Positions 33,542 through 47,652 of a stretch of 64,000 nucleotides of DNA are shown here, in pieces. The translations under genes and the position numbers were made by a program. Location of the stretch: the NCBI GenBank assembly GCA_963204905.1, contig CAUJJN010000203.1, forward strand, positions 1,585 through 65,584, in the 5' to 3' direction. The number at the start of each line of letters is the position of its first letter. The stretch's first letter is position 1. The notes beneath the pieces were generated by a model. That model saw only the letters and a list, made by a program, of their open reading frames with translations, searched no databases and was not told the DNA's origin. The DNA is from Pseudomonadota bacterium. Lineage in GTDB: Bacteria > Pseudomonadota > Alphaproteobacteria > Rhizobiales > Xanthobacteraceae.

Positions 33542-35200
33542 CTAGTCCTCAGTCAGGTTCAAGCCACCGCTGTCAGCGACAAGACACGTATCTTCATAGG
33601 CGATCGCATAACCCTCACCCGGCCACTGGTATTCACAGCAGGCGATCATCCCCTCATGAAGCCTGTTCGTTTCGGAGCGGGTGAACTTGAGATGCGCGAG
33701 GTTGTTGCGGCCAAGCAGATGGCCGACGTCCCGCTCATATGACTCCGGTGTTTTCCCGATGTCGTGGTAGATCGGGTTCGATTTCAGGTCAGGACTTGCC
33801 TTACTGATCACGCGCGTCGCCAGCGCATGGATATCGCTACCGCTTGCCCCCGGCGCACAAGCGGGAATCAGCTGGTTCCGTATCGCACTTCGGAATTTAT
33901 CAAGGATAGCCTGATCGCTTTCTTCAAAGCACAATGTTCTGGCGATATCGGAGCATCCGAGCATCATTCCGTCAGGTGACATCATCAAGCAACCGGCGTC
34001 GATCTTCAGTGTCCGCGCCGCCCTGGTCACCGGGTAGTGCGTGGGATTGGACGGAAACATCGTTCTCGCACCAGAATGAAAATTCGTCAGGGTTCGCGCC
34101 ACTCGGAAATCCGGCGCAAACTCCTGGAAGAATCCACGGAGAGTGGAAAGATACACATCGAATGCATCCAGCTCAGTGATAAGCCTCTCATCCGCGACGG
34201 CGGTCCGCGCGAACGAGAGGGCTTGGTTCATCGCATGGCGCGACGCTCTTGTCGTCACGACATAGGCGCCGAGATCCGGCAAGGTCGATCGGTCGCGCCA
34301 GACCCGCAGCAGGAAATCGCCCGGCACAGTGGCACGCCGACTTAGGCCGAGCGAAGAAACCAGCCATGTCTCGAGATCGTCCTCCTCCAGAGCGATATTC
34401 CCGGATGGGACCAGCACGTTCAGGGCAGCAGCGGCATTGTCGAAAATGGCTGCGCCATCGACCCGGCCACTTTCGACAAGGTGAAGCCCGCCACCTTTCA
34501 CATAGATGGCCGCCAACGGTCGACGCTTGCCTCGCATCGGCAAGCCTGTCAGTTCCTGCACGTTGATGAGAGAGCTTGCGATAACTGCGTCGGCATCTGC
34601 GCCGTTCAACAGGTGTTCAAGCAAATCGAAGCGCCGATCGTCCTGATCGACGAGATAGGGCAAGATCTTGGCGCGGAGCGACGATTGCTCGAGAAGCCGC
34701 CTGGCAATCTGATTAGCTCTGGGCCGATGGCGAGCCAAATGCTCCAGCGCAGTGCTTGGCGCGACGGTCGTAACCGAGACCGTGCCCGGGTTAGCCGACG
34801 TTTCGAACGTGACGTTCAGCCGCTCGCGAAGACGTTTGGCAATGCCGACAGGAACGCGCGGGTCCAGAACGATCTCAGTCCGGCCATCTGCGACATGGCT
34901 GATCGCATCTTCCAGGGAAGCATGGGATGCCAGGGAAGCATGGGAGGCCGAACGCGGCTGCGCGAAGCTGAAGTAGGGCTGATAGAACACCGGCTCGATA
35001 TCGGGCGGAAGACGAGCGGCCTCGACATTTCCGTGTTCAACATGAAGAAACAGCCCGAACCGCCTGTCGCCGCGTTCCAGGATAAACGGCGTGACAGACT
35101 TGATATTGTCAAATGCACGCAGAGCCATCAGGAACCGATCCGGCAGCGAACAACCGAACTGATGCTCGATGTAGGACCAGTCTGAATGAAGATGCATCAA
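33542..35200 (-). CDS. M24-family (creatinase/prolidase 'pita-bread' fold) metallohydrolase-like protein with a long N-terminal extension
   Basis: 552 aa. The C-terminal half shows the M24 ligand pattern in order: ..LKIDAGC.. / ..GCSDIARTL.. / ..DVGHLLG.. / ..EGMIACCEYQW.. / ..IAYEDTCLV.. (D, D, H, E, E). Start is TTG 35200 or ATG 35197; both overlap the stop of the upstream gene. Confidence 0.6.
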   Translation of the reverse strand: MMHLHSDWSYIEHQFGCSLPDRFLMALRAFDNIKSVTPFILERGDRRFGLFLHVEHGNVEAARLPPDIEPVFYQPYFSFAQPRSASHASLASHASLEDAISHVADGRTEIVLDPRVPVGIAKRLRERLNVTFETSANPGTVSVTTVAPSTALEHLARHRPRANQIARRLLEQSSLRAKILPYLVDQDDRRFDLLEHLLNGADADAVIASSLINVQELTGLPMRGKRRPLAAIYVKGGGLHLVESGRVDGAAIFDNAAAALNVLVPSGNIALEEDDLETWLVSSLGLSRRATVPGDFLLRVWRDRSTLPDLGAYVVTTRASRHAMNQALSFARTAVADERLITELDAFDVYLSTLRGFFQEFAPDFRVARTLTNFHSGARTMFPSNPTHYPVTRAARTLKIDAGCLMMSPDGMMLGCSDIARTLCFEESDQAILDKFRSAIRNQLIPACAPGASGSDIHALATRVISKASPDLKSNPIYHDIGKTPESYERDVGHLLGRNNLAHLKFTRSETNRLHEGMIACCEYQWPGEGYAIAYEDTCLVADSGGLNLTED

Positions 35201-35538
35201 GGCGTTTCATCCTCGAATGCGAACTGGTGATCTTTCGCCATACTGAGATCAACCACCGTATCACACACCTGGATATCCTGGCGGATAGGCTCGATCACCA
35301 TGCCATCAATAACGGGCGTGACACAGGCCGTGCAGATCGCGCCATTGGCTCGGACCACGCAGCAAGCACACATGCCGCGCCGGCACGACAGATAGTAACC
35401 GATCGTGCTATCTTTGGTTCGCGCCAACAACTGCAAGGCGCTGCTGATGCTGGAGAGCCCGACGTCAGGCAGTTCGTAATCATATCGCCGCACCGTTGCG
35501 GGGTCCTGCGGGTCGGCACGAACCAGTGTGATTCGCAT
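35197..35538 (-). CDS. Small [2Fe-2S] ferredoxin-like protein (SdhB/FrdB N-terminal domain only)
   Basis: 113 aa. ..YYLSCRRGMCACCVVRANGAICTAC.. reproduces the SdhB C-x4-C-x2-C-x11-C 2Fe-2S pattern. There is no second (4Fe-4S/3Fe-4S) Cys-cluster domain. Confidence 0.7.
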   Translation of the reverse strand: MRITLVRADPQDPATVRRYDYELPDVGLSSISSALQLLARTKDSTIGYYLSCRRGMCACCVVRANGAICTACVTPVIDGMVIEPIRQDIQVCDTVVDLSMAKDHQFAFEDETP

Positions 35539-35544
35539 GATGCG

Positions 35545-37254
35545 TCACCCATTGATGGCCATTGTGGAATAGTTCATAGCGCCGTGCTGAACGCGGATGA
35601 TGCCATGATGCAGATAGCGATCATCCGGTTCGGGGAAGTCGTCGCGATAATGCGCGCCGCGGCTTTCCTGACGCTCGATCGCCGAAAGCACCATCGCTTC
35701 CACCGTCATCGCGGCGCTTCGCGCTTCCAGCGTATCGATGATCCGCCGATTATAGGCGGAATCGAAAGCAAGAGTCGCGCAACTGTTTTGCGCTTCCTCA
35801 ACCACCGAGCGGATGGCGTCCCGCGCCGTTCTCAGATCGTCCAATGATCGCACGACATTCAGCCCCGCATTGGCGATCGACTGCGCCTTTTCGAGCAACA
35901 CATAGGCATCAGCATTCGATCCCGATGTTTTCGCTTCGGGCGTTGCAAGTTCTCGCAAGGTTTGCGGACCGACGATCGGTCCACCGGCCTTGGCGGACTC
36001 CGCGGCGGCGCGCCCGGCCACACGCCCCTGAACCAGAAACTGGGTGCAGGCGTTCCCCGACAACCGGTTGGCGCCGTGCACACCGCCCGCGACTTCCCCA
36101 CATGCGAACAGTCCGTGAAGTGCGGTTTCGCATCGCTCATCGATGTGCACGCCCCCCATCGTGAAATGCGCCGCCGGGGCAACCTCGACCGCATAGCCTT
36201 GCTTGATGCGCGCGACCAGATCCTTGAAGTCGAAACCTTCCCAATGCCAGTTGCCGCGAAGCAACGGCTTGCCATACCACTGCGGCAGGAAGTCGAGAAT
36301 ATCCTGCGGCAGATGCGCCCATGACATGAAGACGCCACCGCCCGGTCCACCGCGTCCCTCCTGCACCTCACGCACACAGGCCCGTGAGAGAATGTCGCGG
36401 GTCGACATCTCCATGCGCTCGGCATCATAGCGCGCCATGAAGCGCTCGCCGTACTTGTTCAAGAGCCACGCGCGCGTCCCGCTTTGCGGCCCGATGATCC
36501 AAGGAAACTGGATGCCGCGCCACAGCGGTGGATTGACCAGACAGCAAGGCAGAAATTGAATCATTTCCATGTCGACGAGCGCGGCGCCGGCCTGCAACGC
36601 CAGCACGTAACCGTCGCCGACCAGTTCTTCCGGAACAGTGCGGAATGGATGCACCATTCCGCCACCACCAGCCGCAATGATCACGGCTCCCGCGGCAATC
36701 GTCCGCCGGATGCCGGATCGCATGTCATAGCCGGAAACACCAACGGCGCAGCCGTTGTCCCGCAGGATATCGGTAACATAAAACTCGTCGCGATACTTCA
36801 CACCTGCCGCAGAGGCCTTCTTCGACAGCAACTGAAGCATCTGCATTCCCGAAACAAGAACGCCGCGGGGAGAGCGGTGGCCCGGGGCATGGCCGATCCC
36901 GACCACCTTCAATCCAGCCGCCATCAAGGAACTGACTTCCGATCCCACATCGGACACCATGGCCTGGGCCAATCGTCGATCGTTGAGATAGCCGCCGCCC
37001 TTCAGGGTATCTTCATAGAAGAGCGCCTGATTGTCGGTGCTTTTCCGCGAGAGCCCCAGGTCATGGATGGTTGTGCCGTCGACCGAGATATCACCGGTGA
37101 TGGTGGCGGTCGCGCCGGAACGTCCGGTCTGCCCTTTGGAGAGAACGAGAACCGAGCATCCGCGGGCGGCGGCTTCCTGCGCGGCGACAAGACCAGCAGC
37201 CCCGCTCCCGATCACCACGACATCCACACGCGGAATGCTGCTCGCCATGCTCAT
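35545..37254 (-). CDS. FAD-dependent oxidoreductase of the succinate dehydrogenase/fumarate reductase/L-aspartate oxidase flavoprotein family
   Basis: Start MSMASSIPRVDVVVIGSGAAGLVAAQEAA.. at ATG 37254 (ATGA overlap at 37251-37254). ..APAAHFTMGGVHID.. and ..GLFACGEVAGGVHGANRLSGNA.. are typical of the family. The covalent-FAD His motif is not evident (..GRSGATATITG..). Confidence 0.85.
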   Translation of the reverse strand: MSMASSIPRVDVVVIGSGAAGLVAAQEAAARGCSVLVLSKGQTGRSGATATITGDISVDGTTIHDLGLSRKSTDNQALFYEDTLKGGGYLNDRRLAQAMVSDVGSEVSSLMAAGLKVVGIGHAPGHRSPRGVLVSGMQMLQLLSKKASAAGVKYRDEFYVTDILRDNGCAVGVSGYDMRSGIRRTIAAGAVIIAAGGGGMVHPFRTVPEELVGDGYVLALQAGAALVDMEMIQFLPCCLVNPPLWRGIQFPWIIGPQSGTRAWLLNKYGERFMARYDAERMEMSTRDILSRACVREVQEGRGGPGGGVFMSWAHLPQDILDFLPQWYGKPLLRGNWHWEGFDFKDLVARIKQGYAVEVAPAAHFTMGGVHIDERCETALHGLFACGEVAGGVHGANRLSGNACTQFLVQGRVAGRAAAESAKAGGPIVGPQTLRELATPEAKTSGSNADAYVLLEKAQSIANAGLNVVRSLDDLRTARDAIRSVVEEAQNSCATLAFDSAYNRRIIDTLEARSAAMTVEAMVLSAIERQESRGAHYRDDFPEPDDRYLHHGIIRVQHGAMNYSTMAING

Positions 37255-38636
37255 TTCTCCGCCAGTCGCGCGCGCAGGTCGGCAAACAACTCGCGTGCAT
37301 AACCGCCCCGACTCAATTGACCGAGACTGTCGTAGATCGAAACCGCCATCGTGCTCGGGATCAGTTCGGCGGCGCAACCCATGAACTTGTCCCGCAGTTG
37401 GACGTCGCTCAGCGGATCACTCGGCATCCCGCGCGCGGCCAACACTCTATGATCGATGCGACGGCCATCATGAAGTTCCACCGAAATCGCGGCGGCTTCC
37501 GGATAGCGGCCGGCGTCATCCGCTTCCATAATATCATCAGCGCGCAACATCGACACTTTCGCCATCTCCGCACGCAGCTCCGGCGCATTCAGAACGTCAT
37601 CCTTCAATTGACGAACGCCACATTCCCCATAAGCCAAAAGACATCCAATAGCGAAGGGCAAGCTGAACTGGGCTTCGGTCAGATTGGTCGGATTCGGATA
37701 TCGCAAATTCTCGGCGACCAGCGGCGCGACCCGACATGTCACTGTCTTCACGTCTCGCGCGGTGAAGCGGTGCCGTTGCAGCAGCTCCTGAACTGCCTGA
37801 CATGCGGCCTGTGTGCCGGAACATGCGGGATAGGCCTTGAAAGCAATCCCGGAGTCGCGCAGCGCATAGTATCGGCCGATCTCCGACAGCTTCTCACGAT
37901 CCAGCACGCCACGATTGAATGCCGCGGCAAGACCGGCAGGGTGCTCGATCGCGAACAGCGGCCCACTCGCTCCGGCCCGTGCCAACAGCGCGGCGCGGAC
38001 CCCAGCCTGTGCCGCGGTGCCGGCCCCGATCGGATTCGCATCCGTGCCCAGCAGTGTCCGCGTGCCGAACGTGAGGCTGGTCGCAATCGCCATGGCGTGC
38101 GCACTTCCGGCTTCTCCAAGATCCAGCGCCCGCGCGGCACCGGCCGCGGCACCGATCGAGCCAAGCGTCGCTGTCGTCCACCAGCCGCCCCAGAACACAT
38201 CCGTCAGCGCGCGCCCGAGCGCATAGGTGACTTCCGAGCCCGCGACAAAAGCGGCGAAAATGTCCGCCGTCGTGGCATCGGCTTCTTCCGCACAGGCGAG
38301 CACTGCGGGAAGGATAACACAGGAGGCGTGCAGAATGCCGTCGTAGCAGGTGTCGTCGAAATCCAACACATGCGCCGCGACGCCATTGGCAAACGCCGCG
38401 CCGGCCGGCTTGAGTGACCTTCTCCCGGCAAATATCGTCGCATGCCCGGGCTGACAATCCTCCTCGCTCATGAGGGCGACGCGCTGGCTCAACGGCTTTC
38501 CTGCCCCGGCCAACATCACGCCGACCGTATCGATGATCGCGCGGGTGGCAGCGCGCGTGATCTCCGCGTCAAGCTGAGTAGCGCTGAGATTTGCGCTCCA
38601 GCTTGCGAGGCGTTGGATCAAGGACTGCTCCGACAC
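37251..38636 (-). CDS. MmgE/PrpD-family protein (2-methylcitrate dehydratase-like)
   Basis: ..LIQRLASWSANLSATQLDAEITRAATRAIIDTVGVMLAGAG.. is a typical PrpD N-terminus. I prefer GTG 38636, which is preceded by AGGAG with a 9-nt spacer and lies just after the upstream TAA (38641). The ORF-track ATG 38693 would overlap the upstream gene by 53 nt. Confidence 0.85.
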   Translation of the reverse strand: MSEQSLIQRLASWSANLSATQLDAEITRAATRAIIDTVGVMLAGAGKPLSQRVALMSEEDCQPGHATIFAGRRSLKPAGAAFANGVAAHVLDFDDTCYDGILHASCVILPAVLACAEEADATTADIFAAFVAGSEVTYALGRALTDVFWGGWWTTATLGSIGAAAGAARALDLGEAGSAHAMAIATSLTFGTRTLLGTDANPIGAGTAAQAGVRAALLARAGASGPLFAIEHPAGLAAAFNRGVLDREKLSEIGRYYALRDSGIAFKAYPACSGTQAACQAVQELLQRHRFTARDVKTVTCRVAPLVAENLRYPNPTNLTEAQFSLPFAIGCLLAYGECGVRQLKDDVLNAPELRAEMAKVSMLRADDIMEADDAGRYPEAAAISVELHDGRRIDHRVLAARGMPSDPLSDVQLRDKFMGCAAELIPSTMAVSIYDSLGQLSRGGYARELFADLRARLAEK

Positions 38637-38640
38637 GTCG

Positions 38641-39405
38641 TTACGCTCCTGCCGCCGCTGCACGGCTTCGATCAGACTGTCGCCCTTGCGCATAGGCGAG
38701 GATGCGCTTCTTCAGTCCAGGTCGACTGGCGCTACGGGTCAGCAACGCCAAGTCCCTATCGCTTTCGTCCCGGCGCGATGCCTCGTTAAGCGCCCGCAAC
38801 GTAACGGTATCGACCGAAATCGTCGGAAGGCCGGCGAGAACCGTATCGACAGAACTGATATCGTCAGACACATGGGTTACAAGTCCCGCAGCGACAGCCT
38901 CCGCAAACGTGAACTCGACCCCCGTCGTGGTCCACAGCCGCGCCTTGTCCTCTCCGACACGAACGGCCAGTCGCCGCGTTCCCAGTACCAGACCGAATCC
39001 CGCACCCGGAAATCGAAACCGACATTCCGCCGGCGCGATCCGGACATCGCAAGCTGTGAAAAGATCGGCTCCCGCCCCCCACGTCCGCCCGGTGCCGATG
39101 GCGACGGTGCGCAACCGCGTTCCCCAGATCATGCTCAGCAGCGTTTCGATCCGCACGAAGCGATGCAGTAAATCACCGTCGCTATGCTGCTCGATGCCTT
39201 GAAGATCGAACCCGGTGCAGAAATGCCGTCCGGCGCCTCGTAGAACCACGGTATCGATATTCGCATCAGACTCGGCCGCCGCGAGCGCTTCAATCAGGCC
39301 CTCCACCAGCGTGGCAGACAAGGCGTTGCCGTGATCGGGACGGTTGAGTTCGATCTGCACTGTGGCTCTGGCGCAGGTCACTCGAGCGAAGCTGCCATCC
39401 GTCAT
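38641..39405 (-). CDS. Enoyl-CoA hydratase/isomerase (crotonase) family protein
   Basis: Homologous start MTDGSFARVTCARATVQIELNRPDHGNALS.. at ATG 39405, 8 nt after the upstream stop. ..VVLRGAGRHFCTGFDL.. is the oxyanion-hole region. Confidence 0.85.
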   Translation of the reverse strand: MTDGSFARVTCARATVQIELNRPDHGNALSATLVEGLIEALAAAESDANIDTVVLRGAGRHFCTGFDLQGIEQHSDGDLLHRFVRIETLLSMIWGTRLRTVAIGTGRTWGAGADLFTACDVRIAPAECRFRFPGAGFGLVLGTRRLAVRVGEDKARLWTTTGVEFTFAEAVAAGLVTHVSDDISSVDTVLAGLPTISVDTVTLRALNEASRRDESDRDLALLTRSASRPGLKKRILAYAQGRQSDRSRAAAAGA

Positions 39406-39413
39406 GTCATCAA

Positions 39414-40601
39414 CTACCCGACAAATATCTGCGACGCGGCCGCCACATCCTGAAGCAGATCGTTCGCGTCCTCGAGCCCCGCATGGAATCGGATGATATG
39501 GCCCTTGGGCGGCGTCGACGCCGTACGAAGCATCGCGGCGTTCTCCAGCCGCGCGAGGCTTTCGAAACCACCCCACGACGAACCGATTCCGAACAGCCGG
39601 AGGGCATTGACGAAAGCAATCGCCCGCCGCTCGTCGAACTCCGGTTTCAACTCAATCGAAAACAAACCGGATCCGCCGGCAAAGTCCCGCCGCCAGATGG
39701 CATGTCCGTCATGCTCGGGACTCGCGGGATAATAGGTCCGTCGCACGAACGGTTGCGCCTTGAACCAGTCGACCAGCCGCGACGCATGATCTGCATGCGC
39801 CTTCATCCGAACGGCTAGTGTGCGCAAGCCGCGCAACACCTGGTAGGCATCGTCAGGCGATGCCGACACGCCAGTCAATTCGGCCATGTCATTGATCAAC
39901 GGCCACGTCGCCTGGTTCGCGACCACGGCGCCCAGCAGCACATCCGAATGCCCATTGAGATACTTCGTCGCCGAGACGACCGAGATATCGGCACCAAGCG
40001 CGAGCGGTTTGTAAAGCCAGCCGGACGCCCAGGTATTGTCGACGGCAAGCCATGCGCCGGCGGCCTTCGCTACCGACGCGATGCGAGGCAGATCAGCGAT
40101 CTCGAACAGAACGGATCCCGGTATCTCAAGGTAGATCAGACGCGTGTTTTCGCGCAGCAATGTCTCGATATCCGAGCCATCTGCGCGACAAAAATCAAAA
40201 TCGACGCCATGCCGCTTGAGTGCATTGATCGCGAATTTCCGAACCGGGCCATAGACGCCATCGCTGACGACCGCATGATCGCCGGCTTTCAAAGTGGAGA
40301 GAAACACCAGCACATTGGCAGCCAGCCCAGACGATGTGAGCCGCGCGCAGTGTCCCTGCTCCATTTCCACCAGAGCATCTTCCAGATGGAATCCGGTTTG
40401 GCTGCCGCGCCGACCGTAAGCGCGGGCTCGCTCTCCCTTCGCGCGCGATGCTTCCACATCGCGCATCGCTTCGACGGTTCCATAGAGATAGGTCGATGCC
40501 CGCTCGATGGACGGGTTCACCGCGGAGCCATTGGACGAGGACCGCCCCATATGGACAAGACGAGATGAGCGGCCGACCTTCTGAGAGGAATCGTCGTTCA
40601 T
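39414..40601 (-). CDS. Cys/Met-metabolism PLP-dependent enzyme (cystathionine beta-lyase / C-S lyase-like)
   Basis: 395 aa. PLP-lysine region ..DISVVSATKYLNGHSDVLLG... N-terminal ..RLVHMGR..VNPSIERASTY.. is typical of the MetC/MetB family. Confidence 0.85.
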   Translation of the reverse strand: MNDDSSQKVGRSSRLVHMGRSSSNGSAVNPSIERASTYLYGTVEAMRDVEASRAKGERARAYGRRGSQTGFHLEDALVEMEQGHCARLTSSGLAANVLVFLSTLKAGDHAVVSDGVYGPVRKFAINALKRHGVDFDFCRADGSDIETLLRENTRLIYLEIPGSVLFEIADLPRIASVAKAAGAWLAVDNTWASGWLYKPLALGADISVVSATKYLNGHSDVLLGAVVANQATWPLINDMAELTGVSASPDDAYQVLRGLRTLAVRMKAHADHASRLVDWFKAQPFVRRTYYPASPEHDGHAIWRRDFAGGSGLFSIELKPEFDERRAIAFVNALRLFGIGSSWGGFESLARLENAAMLRTASTPPKGHIIRFHAGLEDANDLLQDVAAASQIFVG

Positions 40602-40611: not shown

Positions 40612-41757
40612 TCACGCCCCTCCCGCGCTCAGTTCGGTCATCACTTCCCGCGTATGCTCGCCGAGCGCCGGCGGTTGACGATAGATATCGAACTGAAGAC
40701 CCGAGATTTGGATAGGACTCTTAAACGTGCTGGTCTGATGCCCGCCCGGCAGATCGATCGGCTGGACCCAGCCGTAATGAGCAACCTGCTCGTCGGCGAG
40801 GGCTTGAGAATATGTATTGATCGGCGCGCACGGTACACCGCAATCCCGCATCATCGCCAACCACCTTTCGGCCGGCTGCTTCATGAACTCGATTTCGAGA
40901 ATCTCCCGAAGCTCCTCCTGGTTCTGCGCCCGAAGCAGCGATGTCAGAAACCGCGGATCATTCACGAGATCCGGCTTGCCGACAACCTCACACGTCCGCC
41001 GGAACAGATCGTTGTTGCCGGCCGCCAACACGAAATGGCCATCACTGCACCGAAACGCCTGATACGGAGCGTTGCGAGGATGAGCCGAGCCGAGCTTTTT
41101 CGGATCTTTGCCGCTGCCGAAGTACTCGCTCACTTGAAGTGCTGCAATTCCCAACATGACACCGAGCATCGGCACATCGATGTGCCCTCCGATGCCTTCC
41201 TTTTCGACCCGCCGCACCATCGCGGCGACGGAATAAGCGGCGTAGAGACCGGCCGCGAAGTCCGCAACCGGAACGCCGCATTTCACCGGCGCACCGTCGG
41301 ATTCTCCCGTCACGCTCATCACGCCTGCGACAGCCTGGAGGGTGACGTCGAAGCCGCCTTCTCGCGCCCGCGGCCCTTGCTGGCCGTACGCCGAGATCGA
41401 ACAATAGATTAGTTTCGGCGCCAGCTTGCTAAGCTCGGCATAACCCAGGCCAAGCCTCGGCAACACGCTCGGCCGGAAGTTTTCCAGAACGACGTCCGAT
41501 TGCAGACAGAGTTCTCGGGCGCGAGCCAGATCATGCTCGTTTTTGAGATCCAGAACGACCGAGCGCTTGTTTCTGTTTAACGAGGCGAAGTTCTCCGAAT
41601 AGCCGCCGGACAACGGCGGCCAGCTTCGCATACCATCGCCATCGGGAGATTCGATTTTGATAACATCGGCACCCATATCCGCCAGCAGCATGCCGGCAAA
41701 TGGACCCGCAGCAATCTGACAGAACTCGACGACCTTGATTCCAGCCAGGGGAAGCAT
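40612..41757 (-). CDS. Family III CoA-transferase (CaiB/BaiF family)
   Basis: Homologous start MLPLAGIKVVEFCQIAAGPFAGMLLADMGADVIKIE.. at ATG 41757. The ORF-track start 41922 overlaps the upstream gene. Confidence 0.9.
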   Translation of the reverse strand: MLPLAGIKVVEFCQIAAGPFAGMLLADMGADVIKIESPDGDGMRSWPPLSGGYSENFASLNRNKRSVVLDLKNEHDLARARELCLQSDVVLENFRPSVLPRLGLGYAELSKLAPKLIYCSISAYGQQGPRAREGGFDVTLQAVAGVMSVTGESDGAPVKCGVPVADFAAGLYAAYSVAAMVRRVEKEGIGGHIDVPMLGVMLGIAALQVSEYFGSGKDPKKLGSAHPRNAPYQAFRCSDGHFVLAAGNNDLFRRTCEVVGKPDLVNDPRFLTSLLRAQNQEELREILEIEFMKQPAERWLAMMRDCGVPCAPINTYSQALADEQVAHYGWVQPIDLPGGHQTSTFKSPIQISGLQFDIYRQPPALGEHTREVMTELSAGGA

Positions 41758-41794: not shown

Positions 41795-42604
41795 TCACGA
41801 AACATCGAGTCCGAGGTGATGGACCTCAGGCACGCCGGCTGTTCGCCCTCCATCAACCGGAAGAGCAACACCGGTGATGTACTGAGCCTCGTCAGAGGCC
41901 AGGAAGAGCGTCGCCGCCGCAATGTCGTCCGCCGCCCCGATGCGTCCCAGGGGAATTACGAGTTCCGTGCGGCGCCAGTTCTGTTCACACTGTCCGGATG
42001 ACGCAAGCGCACCGCGAAGCATCGGAGTGTCGATCGAGCCGGGGCAGATACAGTTTACGCGAATGTTCTGTTTTGCCAGCGACAGCGCCATCGATTTCGT
42101 CAGCGACACGACGCCTGCCTTGGTCGCACCGTACATCGGCTGCCAGGGGCGACCGACAATGCCGGCATTCGACGCATCGTGAACAATCGCGCCGCCGCCG
42201 GCTTTCTCCATGTGTGGAATGGCGGCCTGACTGAACAGCATCAACCCCTTGAGATTGACGCTGACGAGGAAATCGACATCGTCAACGGTGGTCTCGACGA
42301 AGGGGCGCGTCAACGTCACGCCAGCGTTGTTGACCAGGATATTGACGCCTCCCAACTCCTTGACGACAGCGTCGACGAACCTCGAAATGTCGGCTGCGCT
42401 GGTGACGTCGCCAGGCATGGCGACGACACCAGCGCCTTTCTTCGACAACTCCTCAGCCGTCGCTTTGAGCGCTTCGGAATCCTTGTCGAACACGCCAACA
42501 GCAGCGCCTTCACGTGCAAACATATGAGCTGTCGCGGCACCGATACCCTTCGCCGCACCGGTAATGATAGCAACCTTGCCCTGTAATCTCGTTCCAGTGG
42601 TCAT
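41795..42604 (-). CDS. Short-chain dehydrogenase/reductase (SDR) family oxidoreductase
   Basis: ..LQGKVAIITGAAKGIGAATA.. (TGxxxGxG), NNAG, and catalytic ..YGATKAGV.. (YxxxK). Start is ATG 42604, or ATG 42628 (1-nt overlap with the cupin stop). Confidence 0.9.
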   Translation of the reverse strand: MTTGTRLQGKVAIITGAAKGIGAATAHMFAREGAAVGVFDKDSEALKATAEELSKKGAGVVAMPGDVTSAADISRFVDAVVKELGGVNILVNNAGVTLTRPFVETTVDDVDFLVSVNLKGLMLFSQAAIPHMEKAGGGAIVHDASNAGIVGRPWQPMYGATKAGVVSLTKSMALSLAKQNIRVNCICPGSIDTPMLRGALASSGQCEQNWRRTELVIPLGRIGAADDIAAATLFLASDEAQYITGVALPVDGGRTAGVPEVHHLGLDVS

Positions 42605-43110: not shown

Positions 43111-43503
43111 TCAGTCGCACTTCGCAATCGCTTCGATCTCGACGACGAAGCCGCCGAGAAGTCCAGCCTGCAACGTGGTGCGTGCCGGGTAGGATGGTCC
43201 CTTGAACACTTCCTGAAATGCTTCGTTGAAACCGATGTAGTCGGTCGGGAAGTTCGGCAGAATGCAGGTCAGCTTCATGATCCTGTCGATCGAGCTGCCG
43301 GATGCTTCGAGAACCATCTTCAGGTTCTTCAGCGTCTGGCGGGTCTGCTCCTTGATGTCGCCGAGCACCGGCGCGCCCTTTTCTCCGTCGTAGGCAACCT
43401 GGCCCGCGACATAAACGACGTCACCATCCTTGACGGCTTGTGAGAACGGGCCCGGCGGCATTGTCGGTATTGCGGTTTTGATAACCTGCATTTTCTTCTC
43501 CAT
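43111..43503 (-). CDS. RidA/YjgF/UK114-family protein
   Basis: 130 aa. ..PGPFSQAVKDGDVVYVAGQVAYD..IKEQTRQTLKNLKMVLEASG.. and ..PARTTLQAGLLGGFVVEIEAIA. Confidence 0.85.
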   Translation of the reverse strand: MEKKMQVIKTAIPTMPPGPFSQAVKDGDVVYVAGQVAYDGEKGAPVLGDIKEQTRQTLKNLKMVLEASGSSIDRIMKLTCILPNFPTDYIGFNEAFQEVFKGPSYPARTTLQAGLLGGFVVEIEAIAKCD

Positions 43504-43518: not shown

Positions 43519-44355
43519 TTAGAGCCCGGCTCCCAGTTCCTGGCTCCTGCGAAGCGAGCTACCCTTGACGAAGAGGCGCTCCGCGAGTTCGACGGCGAGG
43601 AAGAACAGAAAACCAAGAACGATGAGCCAGATGATCGCGGCGAACACCATCACCATGTCGAGATTGGCGCGCGCATCCACCAGCACATAACCAAGCCCGG
43701 AATCCGAGGCGACGAATTCGGCCACGATGGCGCCGACCACCGCGAAGGTCATGGCGATCTTCAACCCCGAGAAGATATGTGGCATTGCCGTCGGCAGCCG
43801 GACCTTCCAGAATGATTGCCATCGCGTCGCCCCCATCGAACGCAGCAGCATCAAGCTTTCCGGACGAACCGTGGACAATCCTGCAAGCGTATCGATCACG
43901 ATCGGAAACAACGCGATCAGAAAGGTCATGACCACCTTCGGGAACATGCCGAACCCGAACCAGACGATGAACAGCGGCGCCAACGCGACCTTCGGCAGAA
44001 CCTGTGCGACGATAAGCAGCGGATAGATCGCGCGCCGTAGCGGCTCTGAGAACGTCATGACGGTCGCAAGCGGAATGCCGATCGCGAAGGCCCAAATGAA
44101 GCCGAGAAAAATCGCCCAACTCGTGGAGATCGCATGCTTGAGCAGATACTGATGCTGCGCGATCGCGGTATGGAAGATCGAGCTCGGCGGAGGCAAAATG
44201 TAGACCGGCACGGAAAAAAACCTGACGATTCCTTCCCACAGCAGTACCGATACCAGCAGACTGCACACGGGCACCAGAAAGCCGAAGCCTTTCAATTTTT
44301 TGGTGACAGTTTTCTCCGGGGTAGATTGGATCTGATTCATCACCGTCTCAGTCAT
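43519..44355 (-). CDS. NitT/TauT-family (sulfonate/nitrate/taurine-type) ABC transporter permease
   Basis: Start MTETVMNQIQ.. at ATG 44355, with an 8-nt overlap on the ATPase stop. Six hydrophobic segments and a BPD-transporter loop ..RSMGATRWQSFWKVRLPTAMP.. Confidence 0.9.
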   Translation of the reverse strand: MTETVMNQIQSTPEKTVTKKLKGFGFLVPVCSLLVSVLLWEGIVRFFSVPVYILPPPSSIFHTAIAQHQYLLKHAISTSWAIFLGFIWAFAIGIPLATVMTFSEPLRRAIYPLLIVAQVLPKVALAPLFIVWFGFGMFPKVVMTFLIALFPIVIDTLAGLSTVRPESLMLLRSMGATRWQSFWKVRLPTAMPHIFSGLKIAMTFAVVGAIVAEFVASDSGLGYVLVDARANLDMVMVFAAIIWLIVLGFLFFLAVELAERLFVKGSSLRRSQELGAGL

Positions 44356-45151
44356 TTGAGAAAACTCCAAGCGCCTTAAAGCGCGCTCGTAGGTGGGCGG
44401 TGTACTCATTGAATTGGGGCGTATCCCGCACATCGAGGTTTCGCGGACGGGGCAAATCAATATGCAGGTCCTCAACCACGCTGGCTGGCCGCGCGCTCAT
44501 GACGATGACGCGGTCGGACATGAACACCGCCTCGTCGATGCTGTGCGTCACCAGAACCGCAGTTTTCTTCGACTGCATCCAGATACGTTGGAGATCTGCA
44601 TTCATCTGATCCCGCGTCATGGCATCGAGCGCTCCGAATGGCTCGTCCATCAGCAGGATTTCGGGATCATGGATCAACGCGCGGCACAACGCGACGCGCT
44701 GCTTCATACCGCCTGACAGTTCATCAGGATACTTGTTCTCAAAATCCTTCAGGCCGACCTGCGCCAAAAGCTTTCGTGCGATCGGAAGATAGGTTTTAAC
44801 GTCGAGCCCCCTGATCTCCATTTGCAGCATGATATTCTGCAACGCAGTCCGCCAATCCAGCAGCTCAGCGTTCTGAAAGACGATCCCGAGATTGGTGTAG
44901 GGCGCACGGATCGACACGTCGTCGATCCGCACTTCACCTTCGGACGGCGTGGCCAAGCCAGCGATGAGCGACATCAATGTCGTCTTGCCGCAACCGCTCG
45001 GGCCCAGCAGAGACACAAATTCTCCCCGTTTAATCTTCAGATCGACCCGTGCGAGCGCGTGCACGGAGCCCGTATCCGTTTCGTAGGTCTTCGCGACCGC
45101 ACGAAGATCGATCAGAGGGCTCTCATTTGCCGTGGCCACCGCAAGGTTCAT
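44348..45151 (-). CDS. NitT/TauT-family ABC transporter ATP-binding protein
   Basis: 267 aa. GPSGCGKTT, LSGGMKQRVALCRAL, ILLMDEPFGALD. The ATG overlaps the binding-protein stop (ATGA at 45148-45151). Confidence 0.9.
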   Translation of the reverse strand: MNLAVATANESPLIDLRAVAKTYETDTGSVHALARVDLKIKRGEFVSLLGPSGCGKTTLMSLIAGLATPSEGEVRIDDVSIRAPYTNLGIVFQNAELLDWRTALQNIMLQMEIRGLDVKTYLPIARKLLAQVGLKDFENKYPDELSGGMKQRVALCRALIHDPEILLMDEPFGALDAMTRDQMNADLQRIWMQSKKTAVLVTHSIDEAVFMSDRVIVMSARPASVVEDLHIDLPRPRNLDVRDTPQFNEYTAHLRARFKALGVFSND

Positions 45152-46185
45152 TTCTTGCCGCCCCCAGCCGGTTCGGAGAGATACTCGTTGGTCGCAACCT
45201 TGGCAGGGGTGACGACCCCCTTGGGCAGATCAGCATATTCGACCAGCGCATCAATCGTCTTCTGCCAGTCGGATGGGTCGGTCACGCCGTACGGCTTGTC
45301 CTTCGTCGCCTGCGTATGCAGCAGCTTGATGGTCTCCAGCCACTGGTCGGTCACGACCGGGCGGCTCAGCTTGGTTTCCTTGGCATATTGAAAGAAGGCA
45401 TCGACACCTTTCTCCGGGTTTTTCACCGCGGCTTCGATGGCTTTCGCCGTCGCCATGGCGAAGCTGCGGACGATCGCCGGATTCTTCGCGGCATAATCGT
45501 CTCCCACGGTGATGCCATTACTGATGGCAGTGATTCCAGCTCCGGCATAAGGTAATGTCACGAGCTTGCACGCACACTTTTCCTGCATCAGCGGAAGCTG
45601 CGTCACCGTATAGCCGAACGAAAAGTCAATCTGCTTCTGCATGAACAAATTGTCGCGCGTCGGCAGATCGACGCTCACCCGCTTGACCGAGCTGGCATCG
45701 AGACCGCTGCCCTTGGCAAAGGCGGCGAAGAGTTGCTCCGGCGCCGAACCGACCCCGAAACCGCCGGTTTTTCCTGCGAGATCCTTCGCGGTAACGATCC
45801 CGCTGTTCGGCATGGCCAGGACGATGGCGGGTGTCGTCTGGAACATGCCGACGATCTGCTTGGCCTTCAGACCTTGCGCGACGAACTTGACGAGCGTTCC
45901 GCCATCCGCAAAGCCAAACTGGTCGGTGCCGGCGGCAACGGTCTGGATGGTATTGGCGGATCCACGTCCAGGCTGAGCGGTGACTTCGAGTCCATGTTTT
46001 TTGTAGATGCCGTCCGTGATCCCTAGCAGAATCGGCACGTGCGAACCATAGAAGAAGGTGTCCATACGCACGGTCACCGCCGTCTGCGCGCTGGCCTCGG
46101 ATGTAATTCCCATTGTCACTGTTGTCGCAAAAAGCACTGTCGCCAGTCGCGCGACTTTGGACATCCCGCTCAATCTTGTCATCAC
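45148..46185 (-). CDS. NitT/TauT-family (NMT1/SsuA-like) ABC transporter substrate-binding protein
   Basis: 345 aa. Signal peptide ..VARLATVLFATTVTMGITSEASAQ. ..VRMDTFFYGSHVPILLGITDGIYKKHGLEV.. is typical of NMT1/SsuA-like binding proteins. GTG start at 46185. Confidence 0.85.
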   Translation of the reverse strand: MMTRLSGMSKVARLATVLFATTVTMGITSEASAQTAVTVRMDTFFYGSHVPILLGITDGIYKKHGLEVTAQPGRGSANTIQTVAAGTDQFGFADGGTLVKFVAQGLKAKQIVGMFQTTPAIVLAMPNSGIVTAKDLAGKTGGFGVGSAPEQLFAAFAKGSGLDASSVKRVSVDLPTRDNLFMQKQIDFSFGYTVTQLPLMQEKCACKLVTLPYAGAGITAISNGITVGDDYAAKNPAIVRSFAMATAKAIEAAVKNPEKGVDAFFQYAKETKLSRPVVTDQWLETIKLLHTQATKDKPYGVTDPSDWQKTIDALVEYADLPKGVVTPAKVATNEYLSEPAGGGKK

Positions 46186-46230
46186 TCCACCTCCTCTTTT
46201 GTCGTCGTTGAAATCATCGTGGCCGAGTAA

Positions 46231-47652
46231 CTAGAGATCAGTCCTTCCCGCCGTCGCGCTTCCACTCTTGAGCGTCGTTGGGCGGTCGTCCCGAACGATT
46301 GCAGATGACGGTTTCCCGCCGGATGATGCGGCGCGGTTCAACGCATCGCGCAGGCTCCGTTTCAGTTCGCGGTAGTAGATCATGCTTTCTTCCTGAAGAC
46401 TGTGCCGCGCGGCCGAACCGTATTCGCGTCGCACCCAGGCATCCTTTCGAGCGATGGCATCTCGCATCTCGTTGACTGCGGGCAGCTTTGCTTGCGCCAT
46501 TTCGATCCCCGCCACCCATTTCGCTTGCTGCTCGCAAGCGAAATTGATCGGTGTATCGATATTGACCATGCCGACGAAGTAGATGCCGTCATGCCCCGGC
46601 GGAACGATTCGATTAAAGAGACTCAATCGTCCATCTTCCGGAACGATGCTTGGCGACAGGAACGGAAATTCGGTGATGAATCCCGTCGCGGCGAACAGCA
46701 CATCGAATTCGTCGCTCTCGCCATCGACGAATGTAATTCTGCGGCCGTCGATCTTGTCGATCCCGTTCTTCACATTGATGCGTTTGAACAGGATATCCTG
46801 AATGACCGTGGAACTGATCGTGGCATGGACCTTATGAGTCAGCGGCCGAAAGCCGCAGTCGGTCATCTTGCCGTGAATGACGCGCACCAGCCCGCGCAGA
46901 AGCGCTCGGCGCAGCTTCGAGGGAATGAAGGGCTTCTGCAGGGCCCGCGAAATATCGTTGAAGCTGATGCCCCGGATCAGATGCGGCGTCACGAACACCG
47001 GCGATCGCGCCACCATCACGACACGCTCGGCCGTCCTGCAAACGTCGCTGCCGATATCGACGGCGCTGTTCCCGGCGCCGACAATGCAGACCTTCTTGCC
47101 GACATAGGGCGCGGGATCGCGATATTCGGCGGAATGAATGTAAGTGCCTTGAAACGCGGCGAGGTCCGGAGAATGAAAAGGCCGGTTGAACGGACCGATC
47201 GCAACAACCACTGCATCAAAGACTTCTTCGGGGCGTCCATCGACCCTTACGGTCCAACCGCTAGTCGCGCCATGCCTCGCAGGCGCGACCTCGGCAACCG
47301 TGTGGCCGAACCGGACCTTGTCAATCAACCCGAAGTGCTCGGCGTAACCCTGAAGGTATCGCGCCATATCGCGATGGTCCGGAACCACCTGCGTATCTTT
47401 CGGAAACGGATAGCCCTCGAATGCCGTCAGACGTTTCGACGTATTGATATGGAGGTTTTTGTAGATAAAGTTGCGGCCGTTGTGATCGGCACCGAGCCAA
47501 GTGCCTCCGACAGCCGAGCCTTGCTCGAATATCGAAACATCCGCACCGGACGAAACAAGGGTCTTTGCGGTCACCAATCCTGCCGGGCCAGCACCAATGA
47601 CGGCGATGCGCCGCCTTCGATCATGCTCGCTCTTGTTCAAAGCCTGGACCAT
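46231..47652 (-). CDS. Class-B flavin-containing monooxygenase (paralogue of 30742..32139)
   Basis: RIAVIGAGPAGL, FQGTYIHSAEYRD (FMO motif), VCIVGAGNSAVD. Roughly 55-60% identical to the other FMO over the first ~110 aligned residues (judged by eye). ATG 47652 (MVQALNKSEH..) is preferred over the ORF-track TTG 47706. Confidence 0.85.
   Translation of the reverse strand: MVQALNKSEHDRRRRIAVIGAGPAGLVTAKTLVSSGADVSIFEQGSAVGGTWLGADHNGRNFIYKNLHINTSKRLTAFEGYPFPKDTQVVPDHRDMARYLQGYAEHFGLIDKVRFGHTVAEVAPARHGATSGWTVRVDGRPEEVFDAVVVAIGPFNRPFHSPDLAAFQGTYIHSAEYRDPAPYVGKKVCIVGAGNSAVDIGSDVCRTAERVVMVARSPVFVTPHLIRGISFNDISRALQKPFIPSKLRRALLRGLVRVIHGKMTDCGFRPLTHKVHATISSTVIQDILFKRINVKNGIDKIDGRRITFVDGESDEFDVLFAATGFITEFPFLSPSIVPEDGRLSLFNRIVPPGHDGIYFVGMVNIDTPINFACEQQAKWVAGIEMAQAKLPAVNEMRDAIARKDAWVRREYGSAARHSLQEESMIYYRELKRSLRDALNRAASSGGKPSSAIVRDDRPTTLKSGSATAGRTDL

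Follow-up and report, generated by a model that had tools for sequence, protein, structure and literature searches.

The locus described here raises the question of which compound is imported and degraded by an operon of 14 co-directional genes (minus strand, 47652 to 33542) in a 64-kb stretch of contig CAUJJN010000203.1 (hereafter the window), which comes from an alphaproteobacterium of the Xanthobacteraceae (assembly GCA_963204905.1). An earlier note, made from the sequence alone, had taken the operon for a complete import-and-degradation route for an N- or S-substituted (amino)polycarboxylate or organosulfur acid. The present analysis favors, at a probability of roughly 40%, an operon under LysR control for the catabolism of an imported organosulfur amino-acid derivative, a small anionic or zwitterionic molecule with sulfur and a masked amino group, for which an S-substituted cysteine or a sulfonated/sulfinated amino-acid derivative would be the best candidates. 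Every encoded protein falls into a known superfamily, and a catabolic operon linked to an ATP-binding cassette (ABC) importer is a familiar kind of system; the unusual parts are a truncated soluble complex-II-like enzyme, a rare M24 family and a crotonase without its catalytic glutamates.

Conservation and modular structure of the operon

The homologue search was seeded with the last and most distinctive gene of the operon, M24L, encoding an M24-fold metallohydrolase, and recovered about 90 full-length homologues of ~545 aa. A scan of one genome per species (185,579 species) yielded nine loci, all in metagenome-assembled genomes of Hyphomicrobiales/Xanthobacteraceae, other Alphaproteobacteria and Betaproteobacteria. 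Searches with the solute-binding protein (SBP) added further loci, and the 14 window proteins were compared by tblastn with all loci, 68 in total (designated by L numbers). The full arrangement (Type A) was present in the window, L021, L005, L006, L001/L016, L003/L017, L009, L014, L025 and L060, with the gene order kept in about ten lineages at per-gene identities of 48–98%. The proteins of L021 are 89–98% identical to those of the window, while L014 lies on the chromosome of an isolate, Bradyrhizobium canariense (GCA_900105125.1, LT629750.1:2188936-2209955). Across the Type A loci M24L goes down to 48% identity, and the cupin and the enamine/imine deaminase RidA remain above 80% (RidA 82–96%, compared with 53–74% in the compact loci described below). 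Synteny in other Bradyrhizobiaceae, which the earlier note had proposed to look for, was found there and also in Xanthobacteraceae and Betaproteobacteria, and the recurrent gene order supports its view of one conserved functional unit of the import-and-degradation type.

A second group of compact loci (L004/L010, L007, L011, L013, L018, L020/L026, L027 and L029, with L011 and L029 covered only in part by the fetched DNA) has no flavin-containing monooxygenase (FMO), family-III coenzyme A (CoA)-transferase, Cys/Met-family pyridoxal-phosphate (PLP) enzyme or crotonase. Those seen in full encode the ABC importer, RidA, a short-chain dehydrogenase/reductase (SDR), an FrdA-like flavoprotein with its 2Fe-2S partner (Fer2) and a hydrolase. 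The cupin accompanies all Type A loci and the compact loci L011 and L013 and is missing from the other compact loci. Judged by this distribution, the core of the system comprises the NitT/TauT-type importer, RidA, the SDR, the FrdA-like/2Fe-2S pair and the hydrolase, and the FMO, the family-III CoA-transferase, the PLP enzyme and the crotonase-like protein form an accessory module that the cupin accompanies. The FMO gene stands at the head of the operon in every Type A locus, and the other three genes sit between the SDR and FrdA-like genes, a position which led us to read them as inserted. The MmgE/PrpD-family (PrpD-like) gene is a variable component: it is present in the window, L001, L005, L006, L021 and L025, absent in L014, replaced at its position by YeiH, a 'putative sulfate export transporter', in L003/L017 and L009, and found together with YeiH in L060. 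A monolithic route of 14 steps, as proposed before, is thus not supported; the arrangement is rather that of a core with an accessory module.

Operon architecture and boundaries

The tables of open reading frames (ORFs) gave the 14 genes at the coordinates originally read, and each of the 14 proteins matched a named Pfam family, bearing out the gene inventory and the family assignments. The four start/stop overlaps listed before, of 4–8 nt, were also found as described (45148-45151, 44348-44355, 37251-37254 and 35197-35200). The genes are tightly packed, as claimed, with the remaining intergenic gaps at 5–48 nt and not at 45 nt or less; the longest separates FMO1 from the SBP gene if the SBP starts from the ATG at 46182, as in its 344-aa database twin P0093. 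One overlap had gone unlisted: the PrpD-like ORF, read from the ATG at 38693, overlaps the crotonase ORF by 53 nt. Terminator-like hairpins in the block were not enriched (15 found against 14.9 expected), none of them was intergenic and all lay within coding sequence, which together with the tight packing supports a single operon. The G+C content showed no break across the 14 genes.

The upstream boundary was placed by nucleotide homology to the closest relatives, L021 and L023, which stops at 47744-47749, ~95 nt upstream of the FMO1 start; beyond this break L021 carries unrelated DsbD, DsbA and YkuD genes. The XRE-type gene noticed before does lie upstream (48242-49231, HTH_3). None of the 68 loci contains a homologue of this gene, and it is therefore neither part of the unit nor its conserved regulator; the homology break precedes it. 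Farther upstream, a co-directional set at 49427-54604 encodes an amidase, a CoxG-like protein, an acyl-CoA synthetase, a PaaI-like thioesterase and a PIG3-type medium-chain dehydrogenase/reductase (MDR) family reductase. These genes were rejected as members of the unit because the homology with L021 and L023 ends before them. On the other side, L005 is collinear with the window down to 30032, which takes in the LysR gene and a second FMO gene, FMO2. The features are collected in Table 1.

Table 1. Positions of the operon genes, in order of transcription, and of associated features in the window
Feature	Position	Strand	Basis
Promoter-proximal motif AAACTGACTTGTT	47702..47714	-	50-62 nt upstream of FMO1 start codon
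FMO1, class-B flavin-containing monooxygenase, 473 aa, first gene (accessory)	46231..47652	-	Pfam FMO-like 1e-56
NMT1/SsuA-family periplasmic solute-binding protein (SBP), signal peptide (core)	45148..46182	-	Pfam NMT1 4e-34
ABC ATPase, NitT/TauT type (core)	44348..45151	-	Pfam ABC_tran; start overlaps SBP stop by 4 nt
ABC permease, NitT/TauT type (core)	43519..44355	-	Pfam BPD_transp_1; TauC/SsuC-like; overlaps ATPase gene by 8 nt
RidA-family enamine/imine deaminase (core)	43111..43503	-	Pfam Ribonuc_L-PSP 1.5e-26
Small metal-binding cupin, 154 aa	42628..43092	-	Pfam Cupin_2 6e-17
Classical SDR oxidoreductase (core)	41795..42604	-	Pfam adh_short_C2 2e-65
Family-III CoA-transferase, dicarboxylate (SUGCT/YfdE)-like (accessory)	40612..41757	-	Pfam CoA_transf_3 1e-122
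Cys/Met-family PLP enzyme, cystathionine-beta-lyase-like (accessory)	39414..40601	-	Pfam Cys_Met_Meta_PP 2.5e-96
Crotonase-fold protein lacking both hydratase glutamates (accessory)	38641..39408	-	Pfam ECH_1 1.5e-27
MmgE/PrpD-family protein, iminodisuccinate-epimerase-like (variable)	37251..38693	-	Pfam MmgE_PrpD N and C domains
FrdA/SdhA-like flavoprotein, non-covalent FAD, altered substrate site (core)	35545..37254	-	Pfam FAD_binding_2 and Succ_DH_flav_C
2Fe-2S protein (Fer2), 113 aa, corresponding to N-terminal domain of SdhB/FrdB/TfrB (core)	35197..35538	-	Pfam Fer2_3 7.6e-12
M24L, three-domain M24-fold metallohydrolase, ~545 aa, last gene (core slot)	33542..35197	-	Pfam Peptidase_M24
LysR (LrhA-like) regulator	32608..33462	+	NCBIfam LrhA 293 bits
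FMO2, FMO1 paralogue (51% identity), divergent from LysR gene	30742..32139	-	Pfam FMO-like 3e-67
AapJQMP-like polar-amino-acid ABC importer, one operon with FMO2	26444..30701	-	Pfam SBP_bac_3 and two long BPD_transp_1

Core proteins

None of the 14 proteins matched an NCBIfam equivalog model above its cut-off. The importer shares only the superfamily with SsuABC and TauABC, as far as model scores tell: the SBP scored 57 bits with SsuA_fam (cut-off 163.5) and 26 with TauA (304), the permease 95 with TauC (342) and 91 with SsuC (347), and the best NCBIfam matches of the ATPase were SaoA and the taurine, nitrate and sulfonate ATPases. SBP orthologues of 58–91% identity occur in every cluster variant, and a search of the PDB gave remote matches only. 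Paralogues of the SBP were also found on metagenome contigs (L019 and L032-L059), where they form a conserved arrangement of their own and are oriented divergently from the genes for the ABC ATPase and permease; L019, the only one of these with gene calls and family scans, has a beta-etherase-like glutathione S-transferase (GST) and an SfnG-like luciferase-family monooxygenase in the block. This arrangement is probably another organosulfur uptake system.

RidA, present in all variants, scored below the subfamily level (85.7 bits with TIGR00004, cut-off 106) and carries a YPAR motif, whose arginine we take to be the carboxylate-binding residue for an imino acid. The SDR was found in every variant, adjoining either RidA or the M24 gene; its PDB neighbors were generic, with TsaC ranking top.

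The FrdA-like flavoprotein had its closest NCBIfam models in TfrA (336 bits, cut-off 718), SdhA and NadB, all far above its scores. Aligned to the Sdh of M. smegmatis, it reads RSGAT for RSHT, a glycine replacing the histidine that binds FAD covalently; the HPT motif is changed from QFHPT to IQFLPC (Leu and Cys replacing His and Thr), and the TEGxRGEGG loop is not conserved, with FPWIIGPQSGTRAW in place of ISEAVRGEGG. The catalytic arginine and the proximal His/Arg are kept (STRDILSR, AAHFTMGG and GANRLSGN). Such a site would suit a succinate- or aspartate-like molecule bearing only one carboxylate. The residues which bind the second carboxylate of succinate, fumarate or aspartate are gone, and a polycarboxylate, on which this enzyme had been proposed to act, is therefore an unlikely substrate for it.

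The gene for the 2Fe-2S protein invariably comes after the FrdA-like gene. The protein matched the N-terminus of TfrB with 50 bits and has a single C-x4-C-x2-C-x11-C motif instead of the three clusters (2Fe-2S, 4Fe-4S and 3Fe-4S) of SdhB/FrdB. In two Type A loci, L003 and L009, the M24 gene is followed within ~20 nt by genes for a ferredoxin-NADP reductase of the Fpr type and a ferredoxin (Fer4, DUF3470) (11650-12769 and 11653-12770, respectively). The ferredoxin is presumably of the 7Fe type; if so, it and the 2Fe-2S protein would between them carry all the clusters of SdhB on separate polypeptides, possibly as a soluble electron chain.

FrdA-like/Fer2 pairs of 45–48% identity also occur in other genomic contexts. 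In Caballeronia sordidicola (JNFG01000199.1, L064) the gene after such a pair (47% identity) encodes a JmjC/Cupin_8 protein, and the surrounding region also has genes for an NMT1 binding protein, two rhodaneses, an SfnG-like monooxygenase and a sulfate transporter of the SulP family. A distant pair in Pseudomonas is flanked by two SsuA-family proteins, and another adjoins a TctC protein. A search of plasmids for close FrdA-like homologues found none above 32% identity.

The hydrolase slot

M24L matches Pfam Peptidase_M24 over residues 376-542 of 552 only, i.e. in its C-terminal domain, where the metal ligands D401, D418, H494, E523 and E536 are invariant in 27 homologues, placing it in the M24 clan. 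Its predicted structure (pLDDT, the predicted local distance difference test score, 88.9) had as top Foldseek matches three-domain aminopeptidase P and prolidases (probability 1.0), creatinase and DddP. A sequence search of the PDB returned no match, NCBIfam has no family for it, and at 50% identity the family comprises 117 clusters among 1.84 billion representatives. To creatinase the likeness is structural only (E ~1e-13), as M24L has no Creatinase_N domain and a partial M24 match.

The slot is not always filled by M24L. In the compact locus L018 an arginase-family enzyme, whose best match is the formimidoylglutamase HutG (below cut-off), follows Fer2 in its place; L004, L007 and L027 have such a HutG-like enzyme alongside M24L; and in L020/L026 a short M24 protein with Creatinase_N takes the slot. 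With an identity of 24% over 140 aa, the short protein of L020 was rejected as an M24L orthologue. That one slot takes three non-orthologous hydrolases suggests a common type of reaction, an 'amine-unmasking' step by cleavage of an amidine or amide. To our knowledge, the chemistry common to the M24 and arginase families is guanidino/amidino hydrolysis, and the sharing of the slot therefore points to amidine or guanidine hydrolysis, a step which the earlier note, correct about the presence of an M24 hydrolase, had not considered. A group II intron and transposase genes (253-480 and 2444-5985 of L018) lie just upstream of the arginase-family compact variant.

On the Rhodococcus pseudokoreensis plasmid NZ_CP070614.1 (250540-265238; L067) the gene for an M24L cousin of 550 aa with 25% identity comes after those for a permease, an NMT1-type binding protein and an ATPase, in this order, and before those for RidA and an SDR; beside this core are genes for hydantoinase A/B, a MaoC dehydratase, a family-III CoA-transferase and a crotonase. 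Such an arrangement at 25% identity indicates that M24L, RidA, the SDR and the importer have long been associated and that their connection with CoA chemistry is likewise old. Around the M24L cousin in Pantoea (L068) are genes for M20 and M28 peptidases, a racemase and an amidohydrolase, a context that points to an amide or peptide as substrate.

Accessory and variable proteins

FMO1 has the two dinucleotide-binding motifs (GAGPAG and GAGNSA) and FQGTYIHSAEY, which we take to fit the FxGxxxHxxxY motif of FMOs, and by these features it is a class-B FMO, putatively of the S/N heteroatom-oxygenase type. Trimethylamine monooxygenase Tmm was rejected as its identity (96 bits, cut-off 675); the best PDB match was 8z12, an unnamed 'flavin-dependent monooxygenase'. 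In the cupin both metal motifs are readable (HQHTFE and PPNVPHRHIN), and its best PDB match was the C-terminal domain of gentisate 1,2-dioxygenase (2e-11). The CoA-transferase had succinate-glutarate CoA-transferase as the best NCBIfam match (336, cut-off 750) and SUGCT (succinate-hydroxymethylglutarate; 284 bits) and YfdE as top PDB matches; being nearest to the succinate-hydroxymethylglutarate, succinate-glutarate and oxalate types, it appears to be a dicarboxylate-type enzyme. The PLP enzyme fell just short of the TIGR01324 cystathionine beta-lyase model (364.4 bits, cut-off 365.9) and has the SATKY lysine motif; given the operon context, a housekeeping role of this MetC-like protein is unlikely.

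The crotonase-fold protein, aligned to canonical enoyl-CoA hydratase, reads GAGADL for GGGxEL and FPGAGFG for PExxxG, with Asp and Gly at the two catalytic glutamate positions, and is thus unlikely to be a plain hydratase; the top PDB match was the uncharacterised 3isa. The combination of CoA-transferase, crotonase and SDR had been read as a beta-oxidation-like route. This is doubtful, as the crotonase has neither glutamate and the SDR, a core protein, is also encoded where the CoA enzymes are absent.

The PrpD-like protein was rejected as 2-methylcitrate dehydratase, since it scored 34 and 30 bits with the PrpD equivalogs (cut-offs 950 and 575) and is closer to iminodisuccinate (IDS) epimerase (149 bits) and the B. 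subtilis IRG1 homologue (121 bits), its best PDB matches. The rearrangement or dehydration formerly ascribed to it cannot be an essential step, given that the gene is missing in B. canariense and YeiH substitutes for it elsewhere. Its dispensability also weakens the aminopolycarboxylate reading of the substrate, while the organosulfur option is strengthened by the neighbors in the variant loci.

Regulation and the second FMO operon

The LysR gene next to the end of the operon encodes a protein that is 62–75% identical to the LysR divergent from the FMO gene at the cluster head in L014, L016, L017, L025 and L060, and in L005 and L006 its gene occupies the position that it has in the window. For each of the four LysR proteins tested, the best NCBIfam match was LrhA. 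By these orthologies, this protein and not the XRE protein is the conserved regulator of the unit. A 13-nt motif, AAACTG[AT]CTTG[CT]T, has a single match in the window (Table 1); it occurs once upstream of the FMO gene in L014, L017, L021, L023 and L060, nowhere else in the 68 loci, and its distance to the FMO gene is kept in these five. It is probably part of a LysR-dependent promoter. A search with Rfam found no riboswitch at gathering score in the window or in nine related loci (only tRNA and group II intron).

FMO2, divergent from the LysR gene, is as similar as FMO1 to the single FMO of other loci and is conserved in L005 (93%) and L006; the FMO gene is duplicated in the lineage of the window. 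The importer operon which it heads includes an ATPase ORF at 26444-~27230, and membership of this importer in the unit is suggested by its co-orientation with FMO2 and the shared LysR. The presence of an FMO2-importer operon beside an orthologous LysR points to an amino acid as a further FMO substrate and to a functional unit extending past 33542-47652.

Directly upstream of the cluster in L014 (800-7312), a set of genes with a LysR of its own encodes a Liv-type ABC importer, a flavin reductase and an FMN monooxygenase that scores above the cut-off of the NtaA/DmoA family (514 bits); this set may be functionally related to the cluster. The distal part of the window itself (1-25200) holds Liv-type (Peripla_BP_6) binding-protein genes, a branched-chain-type permease, acyl-CoA synthetases and a fragment of a sigma-54 activator, and the ORF running off the window start encodes a biotin carboxylase, a biotin carrier and the start of a carboxyltransferase domain. 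No tRNA genes were found in the whole window.

Proposed function

The data show the gene content of the operon, its conservation and modular layout, the active-site features and the conservation of regulator and promoter, while the catalytic assignments and the nature of the substrate are what we infer from families, residues and neighborhoods. In the core, the NitT/TauT ABC importer with its SsuA-family binding protein would take up the compound and the metallohydrolase, here M24L, would unmask the amine by cleaving an amidine, guanidine or amide. The soluble FrdA-like/2Fe-2S enzyme may then dehydrogenate an analogue of succinate or aspartate in which another group takes the place of the distal carboxylate, RidA would hydrolyse the resulting imine or enamine to a carbonyl acid and ammonia, and the SDR would interconvert carbonyl and hydroxy acid. 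In the accessory module, the FMO could S-oxygenate a thioether or sulfinate, the MetC-like enzyme could cut the C-S bond of a cysteine moiety, with RidA clearing the aminoacrylate, and the cupin might oxygenate the released thiol. The SUGCT/Act-like CoA-transferase would activate a sulfino- or sulfo-acid as a dicarboxylate analogue and the glutamate-less crotonase would eliminate a sulfur oxyanion from the CoA ester. In some genomes YeiH may export the sulfite or sulfate, and the optional IDS-epimerase-like PrpD homologue might funnel stereoisomers into the route.

A sulfur theme runs through the variants: the importer is SsuA/TauC-like; YeiH appears at the PrpD position; the associated PLP enzymes are MetC-like in Type A, CysK-like (PALP) in L007, L013 and L027 and SufS/EgtE-like in L004; and SBP paralogues of 55–58% identity adjoin an SfnG-like monooxygenase and a GST. 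The distant FrdA-like/Fer2 pairs add to this theme through the SfnG-like monooxygenase, rhodaneses and sulfate transporters near the pair in Caballeronia and the SsuA-family proteins around that in Pseudomonas. The nitrogen theme is represented by RidA in all variants, together with the arginase-family and M24 hydrolases.

Several points weigh against this reading. The sulfur evidence is genomic context, partly from paralogues or distant homologues, and the SBP is as near in the PDB to the pyrimidine-binding ThiY (1e-4) as to SsuA (2e-3). The regulator is LrhA/PtrR-like and not CysB/Cbl-like, so that sulfur-starvation control is not indicated; this speaks for substrate-specific induction instead. 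The cupin falls outside the cysteine-dioxygenase family, with gentisate dioxygenase and oxalate decarboxylase as best matches, and the known desulfinase is an acyl-CoA-dehydrogenase homologue and not a crotonase (PMC6370202). The operon encodes no sulfite-oxidising enzyme, and a reductive role of the flavoprotein, more than one as a dehydrogenase, would fit the Fpr and ferredoxin genes of L003 and L009. The evidence from the arginase-family and M24 enzymes is for guanidino compounds, and there is no established natural substrate that joins both themes. Nor does any of the proteins attain an equivalog cut-off.

A bolder form of the organosulfur reading, which we regard as doubtful, takes the core for a new enzyme system, in which a soluble truncated complex-II-like enzyme and a three-domain M24 family of amidino- or amido-hydrolases would act on an organosulfur amino-acid derivative of undescribed catabolism. 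The FrdA-like/2Fe-2S enzyme, assisted by ferredoxin/Fpr in some genomes, would in this case act on sulfur- or guanidino-substituted succinate or aspartate analogues and, together with RidA and the SDR, strip the nitrogen independently of oxygen, with the sulfur leaving through the accessory CoA/crotonase step.

Alternative explanations

The alternative that survives best, though it is unlikely in our estimate, is scavenging of nitrogen from a guanidino or amidino compound, the sulfur being incidental. The substrate could be a guanidino acid or guanidino-sulfonate, such as taurocyamine, 3-guanidinopropionate, guanidinosuccinate or a plant guanidino amino acid; M24L or the arginase-family enzyme would release urea, the FrdA-like/Fer2 enzyme would oxidise the amine, RidA would hydrolyse the imine, the SDR would reduce the aldehyde or keto acid and the accessory module would dispose of the carbon skeleton. 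The hydrolase slot with its three non-orthologous occupants (M24L, the short Creatinase_N-M24 protein and the HutG-like enzyme) agrees with this, as does creatinase among the Foldseek neighbors of M24L; but creatinase is metal-free, while M24L retains all metal ligands, and the coexistence of M24L with the arginase-like enzyme in L004, L007 and L027 means that the two are not simply interchangeable. In the regulons of guanidine riboswitches, NitT/TauT importers are associated with the uptake of guanidine, yet no guanidine riboswitch was detected in the window or the nine related loci. The FrdA-like site without ligands for a second carboxylate is what would be expected for a cationic distal group, and the flavin-dependent arginine dehydrogenase with its Rid protein offers a precedent (PMC5619798). 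On the other hand, the amide or peptide substrate suggested by the M20/M28 peptidases and racemase around the Pantoea cousin does not fit, and the CysK-, MetC- and SufS-like enzymes, YeiH and the SfnG-like neighbors are left unexplained.

The polycarboxylate version of the earlier note is improbable. It assumes an IDS-like aminopolycarboxylate or an S-(dicarboxyalkyl)cysteine such as S-(2-succino)cysteine (2SC), with the PrpD-like protein as epimerase or dehydratase and the FrdA-like enzyme acting on the succinyl part. The solved relatives closest to the PrpD-like protein, the dicarboxylate-type CoA-transferase and the NtaA/DmoA-family monooxygenase adjoining the cluster in B. canariense are all in its favor, but the PrpD-like gene is missing in B. 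canariense, L003, L009 and L017 with the rest kept, and the FrdA-like enzyme has lost the His and the Thr-Glu loop that hold a second carboxylate. The 2SC (yxe) locus of B. subtilis also includes a protein of unknown function, YxeQ (PMC9706529); the operon nevertheless has no YxeK-, YxeL- or YxeP-type gene. We presume that YxeQ is itself a MmgE/PrpD-family protein.

Quite improbable is a beta-amino-acid route with a Rut-like tail, in which the hydrolase would free beta-alanine or a beta-substituted propionate, the FrdA-like enzyme would desaturate it to 3-aminoacrylate in the manner of succinate dehydrogenase, a RutC-like RidA would give malonate semialdehyde, a YdfG-like SDR would reduce it to 3-hydroxypropionate, and CoA-transferase and crotonase would lead to acryloyl-CoA. 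It assigns coherent roles to FrdA/Fer2, RidA, SDR, CoA-transferase and crotonase, and PanE-like reductase genes lie near M24L in L007 and Pantoea L068. RidA matches RutC weakly (55 bits) but scores higher with the generic RidA model; 3-hydroxypropionyl-CoA dehydratase is third among the PDB matches of the crotonase, which nonetheless has neither of the glutamates needed for hydration or dehydration; and the MDR-family reductase just upstream (49427-50413) has weak acryloyl-CoA-reductase similarity but is outside the conserved block. No YdfG-type match was present among the best NCBIfam families of the SDR, and the FMO, cupin, PLP lyase and sulfur-related neighbors would remain unexplained.

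A chance juxtaposition of unrelated co-directional units, to which the visible modularity, the PrpD/YeiH exchange and the lineage-specific XRE and upstream genes might point, can be dismissed as very improbable, being contradicted by order and content kept in about ten lineages (48–98% identity), translational coupling, the conserved promoter motif and the M24L-RidA-SDR-ABC association maintained at 25% identity in Actinobacteria.

Comparison with known systems

Literature searches for the co-occurring enzyme set found no match, and none of the 2SC/yxe, canavanine and thiodipropionate systems corresponds to it, in line with the former impression that the combination fits no known pathway. The nearest precedent for the accessory logic of the organosulfur reading would be, by analogy, the Mdo-Act-AcdA route for 3-mercaptopropionate, which belongs to thiodipropionate and dithiodipropionate catabolism in Variovorax paradoxus TBEA6 and Advenella mimigardefordensis. 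In Variovorax the cupin-type dioxygenase Mdo converts 3-mercaptopropionate to 3-sulfinopropionate, the class-III CoA-transferase Act makes the CoA ester, and a desulfinase yields sulfite and propionyl-CoA (PMC6370202). Shared with the operon are a cupin-type oxygenase and a class-III CoA-transferase, which in that pathway depends on succinyl-CoA and uses a sulfur analogue of succinate; that cluster also has several crotonase-family proteins, its sulfite is released and exported, and its propionyl-CoA is passed on to the methylcitrate cycle, in which a PrpD-family enzyme takes part (PMC6370202). Identity with this pathway was rejected on account of the different families: Mdo is homologous to cysteine dioxygenase, whereas the operon encodes a Cupin_2 protein with gentisate dioxygenase as its nearest match, and an acyl-CoA-dehydrogenase homologue such as the AcdA-type desulfinase is not encoded here. 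The thiodipropionate pathway, for its part, is without FMO, PLP lyase, RidA, M24, FrdA-like/Fer2 and NitT/TauT importer, and its uptake was reported as TctC-type (PMC8102459).

The yxe and CmoO/CmoJ operons of B. subtilis, which recover cysteine sulfur, resemble the operon in that one transcription unit brings together an ABC importer, a metallohydrolase, a flavin monooxygenase whose target is sulfur and a protein without an assigned role (PMC9706529; PMC10863075). A further precedent for the accessory logic is the S-oxygenation of S-alkylcysteines by flavin enzymes in bacterial salvage (PMC10863075). The enzymes differ, being FMN luciferase-like instead of class-B FMO, M20 instead of M24 and polar-amino-acid ABC instead of NitT/TauT; the salvage operons have an N-acetyltransferase and are without CoA chemistry, FrdA-like enzyme and PLP lyase. 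A yxe locus is defined by at least three of YxeK, YxeL, YxeMNO, YxeP and YxeQ in a cluster (PMC9706529). The identity was rejected, as none of the 14 genes encodes an acetyltransferase, an M20 deacetylase or a luciferase-like monooxygenase. As a counterpart only the MmgE/PrpD-family gene could be considered, provided that YxeQ is, as we presume, of that family.

The pairing of a flavin dehydrogenase with RidA is reminiscent of DauA of P. aeruginosa, which forms an imino acid that Rid proteins hydrolyse, thereby speeding the reaction of this amino-acid dehydrogenase in vitro (PMC5619798). The flavoprotein of the operon has the SdhA/FrdA/NadB fold and a separate 2Fe-2S subunit, whereas the dehydrogenases DauA and DguA are of the DAO family. 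DguA and DguB are a further pair of flavin dehydrogenase and Rid-family protein. With SdhAB, FrdAB, TfrAB and NadB the FrdA-like protein has in common the FAD_binding_2 and Succ_DH_flav_C domains, the catalytic Arg and the proximal His/Arg, and its partner has the SdhB-type 2Fe-2S motif; unlike these systems, it has no covalent-FAD His, its HPT His and TEGxRGEGG loop are replaced, the partner is only 113 aa long and there is no membrane anchor.

M24L shares the pita-bread fold and the five metal ligands with the M24B hydrolases (aminopeptidase P, prolidase, creatinase, ectoine hydrolase and DddP), and its three-domain layout resembles eukaryotic aminopeptidase P; its partners are RidA, the SDR and a NitT/TauT importer, in contrast to the peptide transporters of M24B hydrolases. 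Several families also recall the genes of dimethylsulfoniopropionate (DMSP) metabolism, in which DddP is an M24 protein, DddD a class-III CoA-transferase, the Ddd lyases cupins, DmdD a crotonase and Tmm an FMO. A membership in this gene set was dropped, with no support at the sequence level: DddP was one of many equal Foldseek matches and the Tmm score was far below its cut-off.

The canavanine gamma-lyase operon of Pseudomonas canavaninivorans and Rhizobiales likewise combines a Cys/Met-family PLP lyase, which cleaves this legume guanidino amino acid, with an ABC importer (PMC9533460). Its other components (homoserine dehydrogenase, aldehyde dehydrogenases, aspartate ammonia-lyase, the Gdx exporter and an Arg/Lys/Orn-type binding protein) are all missing here, and the identity was rejected.

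Significance

If the organosulfur reading is true, the operon would represent an unrecognised route for recycling of an organic compound of sulfur and nitrogen in soil, groundwater and marine Proteobacteria. It would provide the first functions for FrdA-like/2Fe-2S pairs adjoining sulfonate-type binding proteins, for the ~550-aa M24 family and for glutamate-less crotonases of the 3isa type, and would show how a catabolic operon is assembled by insertion of an accessory module into a widespread core. The presence of the cluster in a cultured strain, B. canariense GCA_900105125.1, makes it directly testable.

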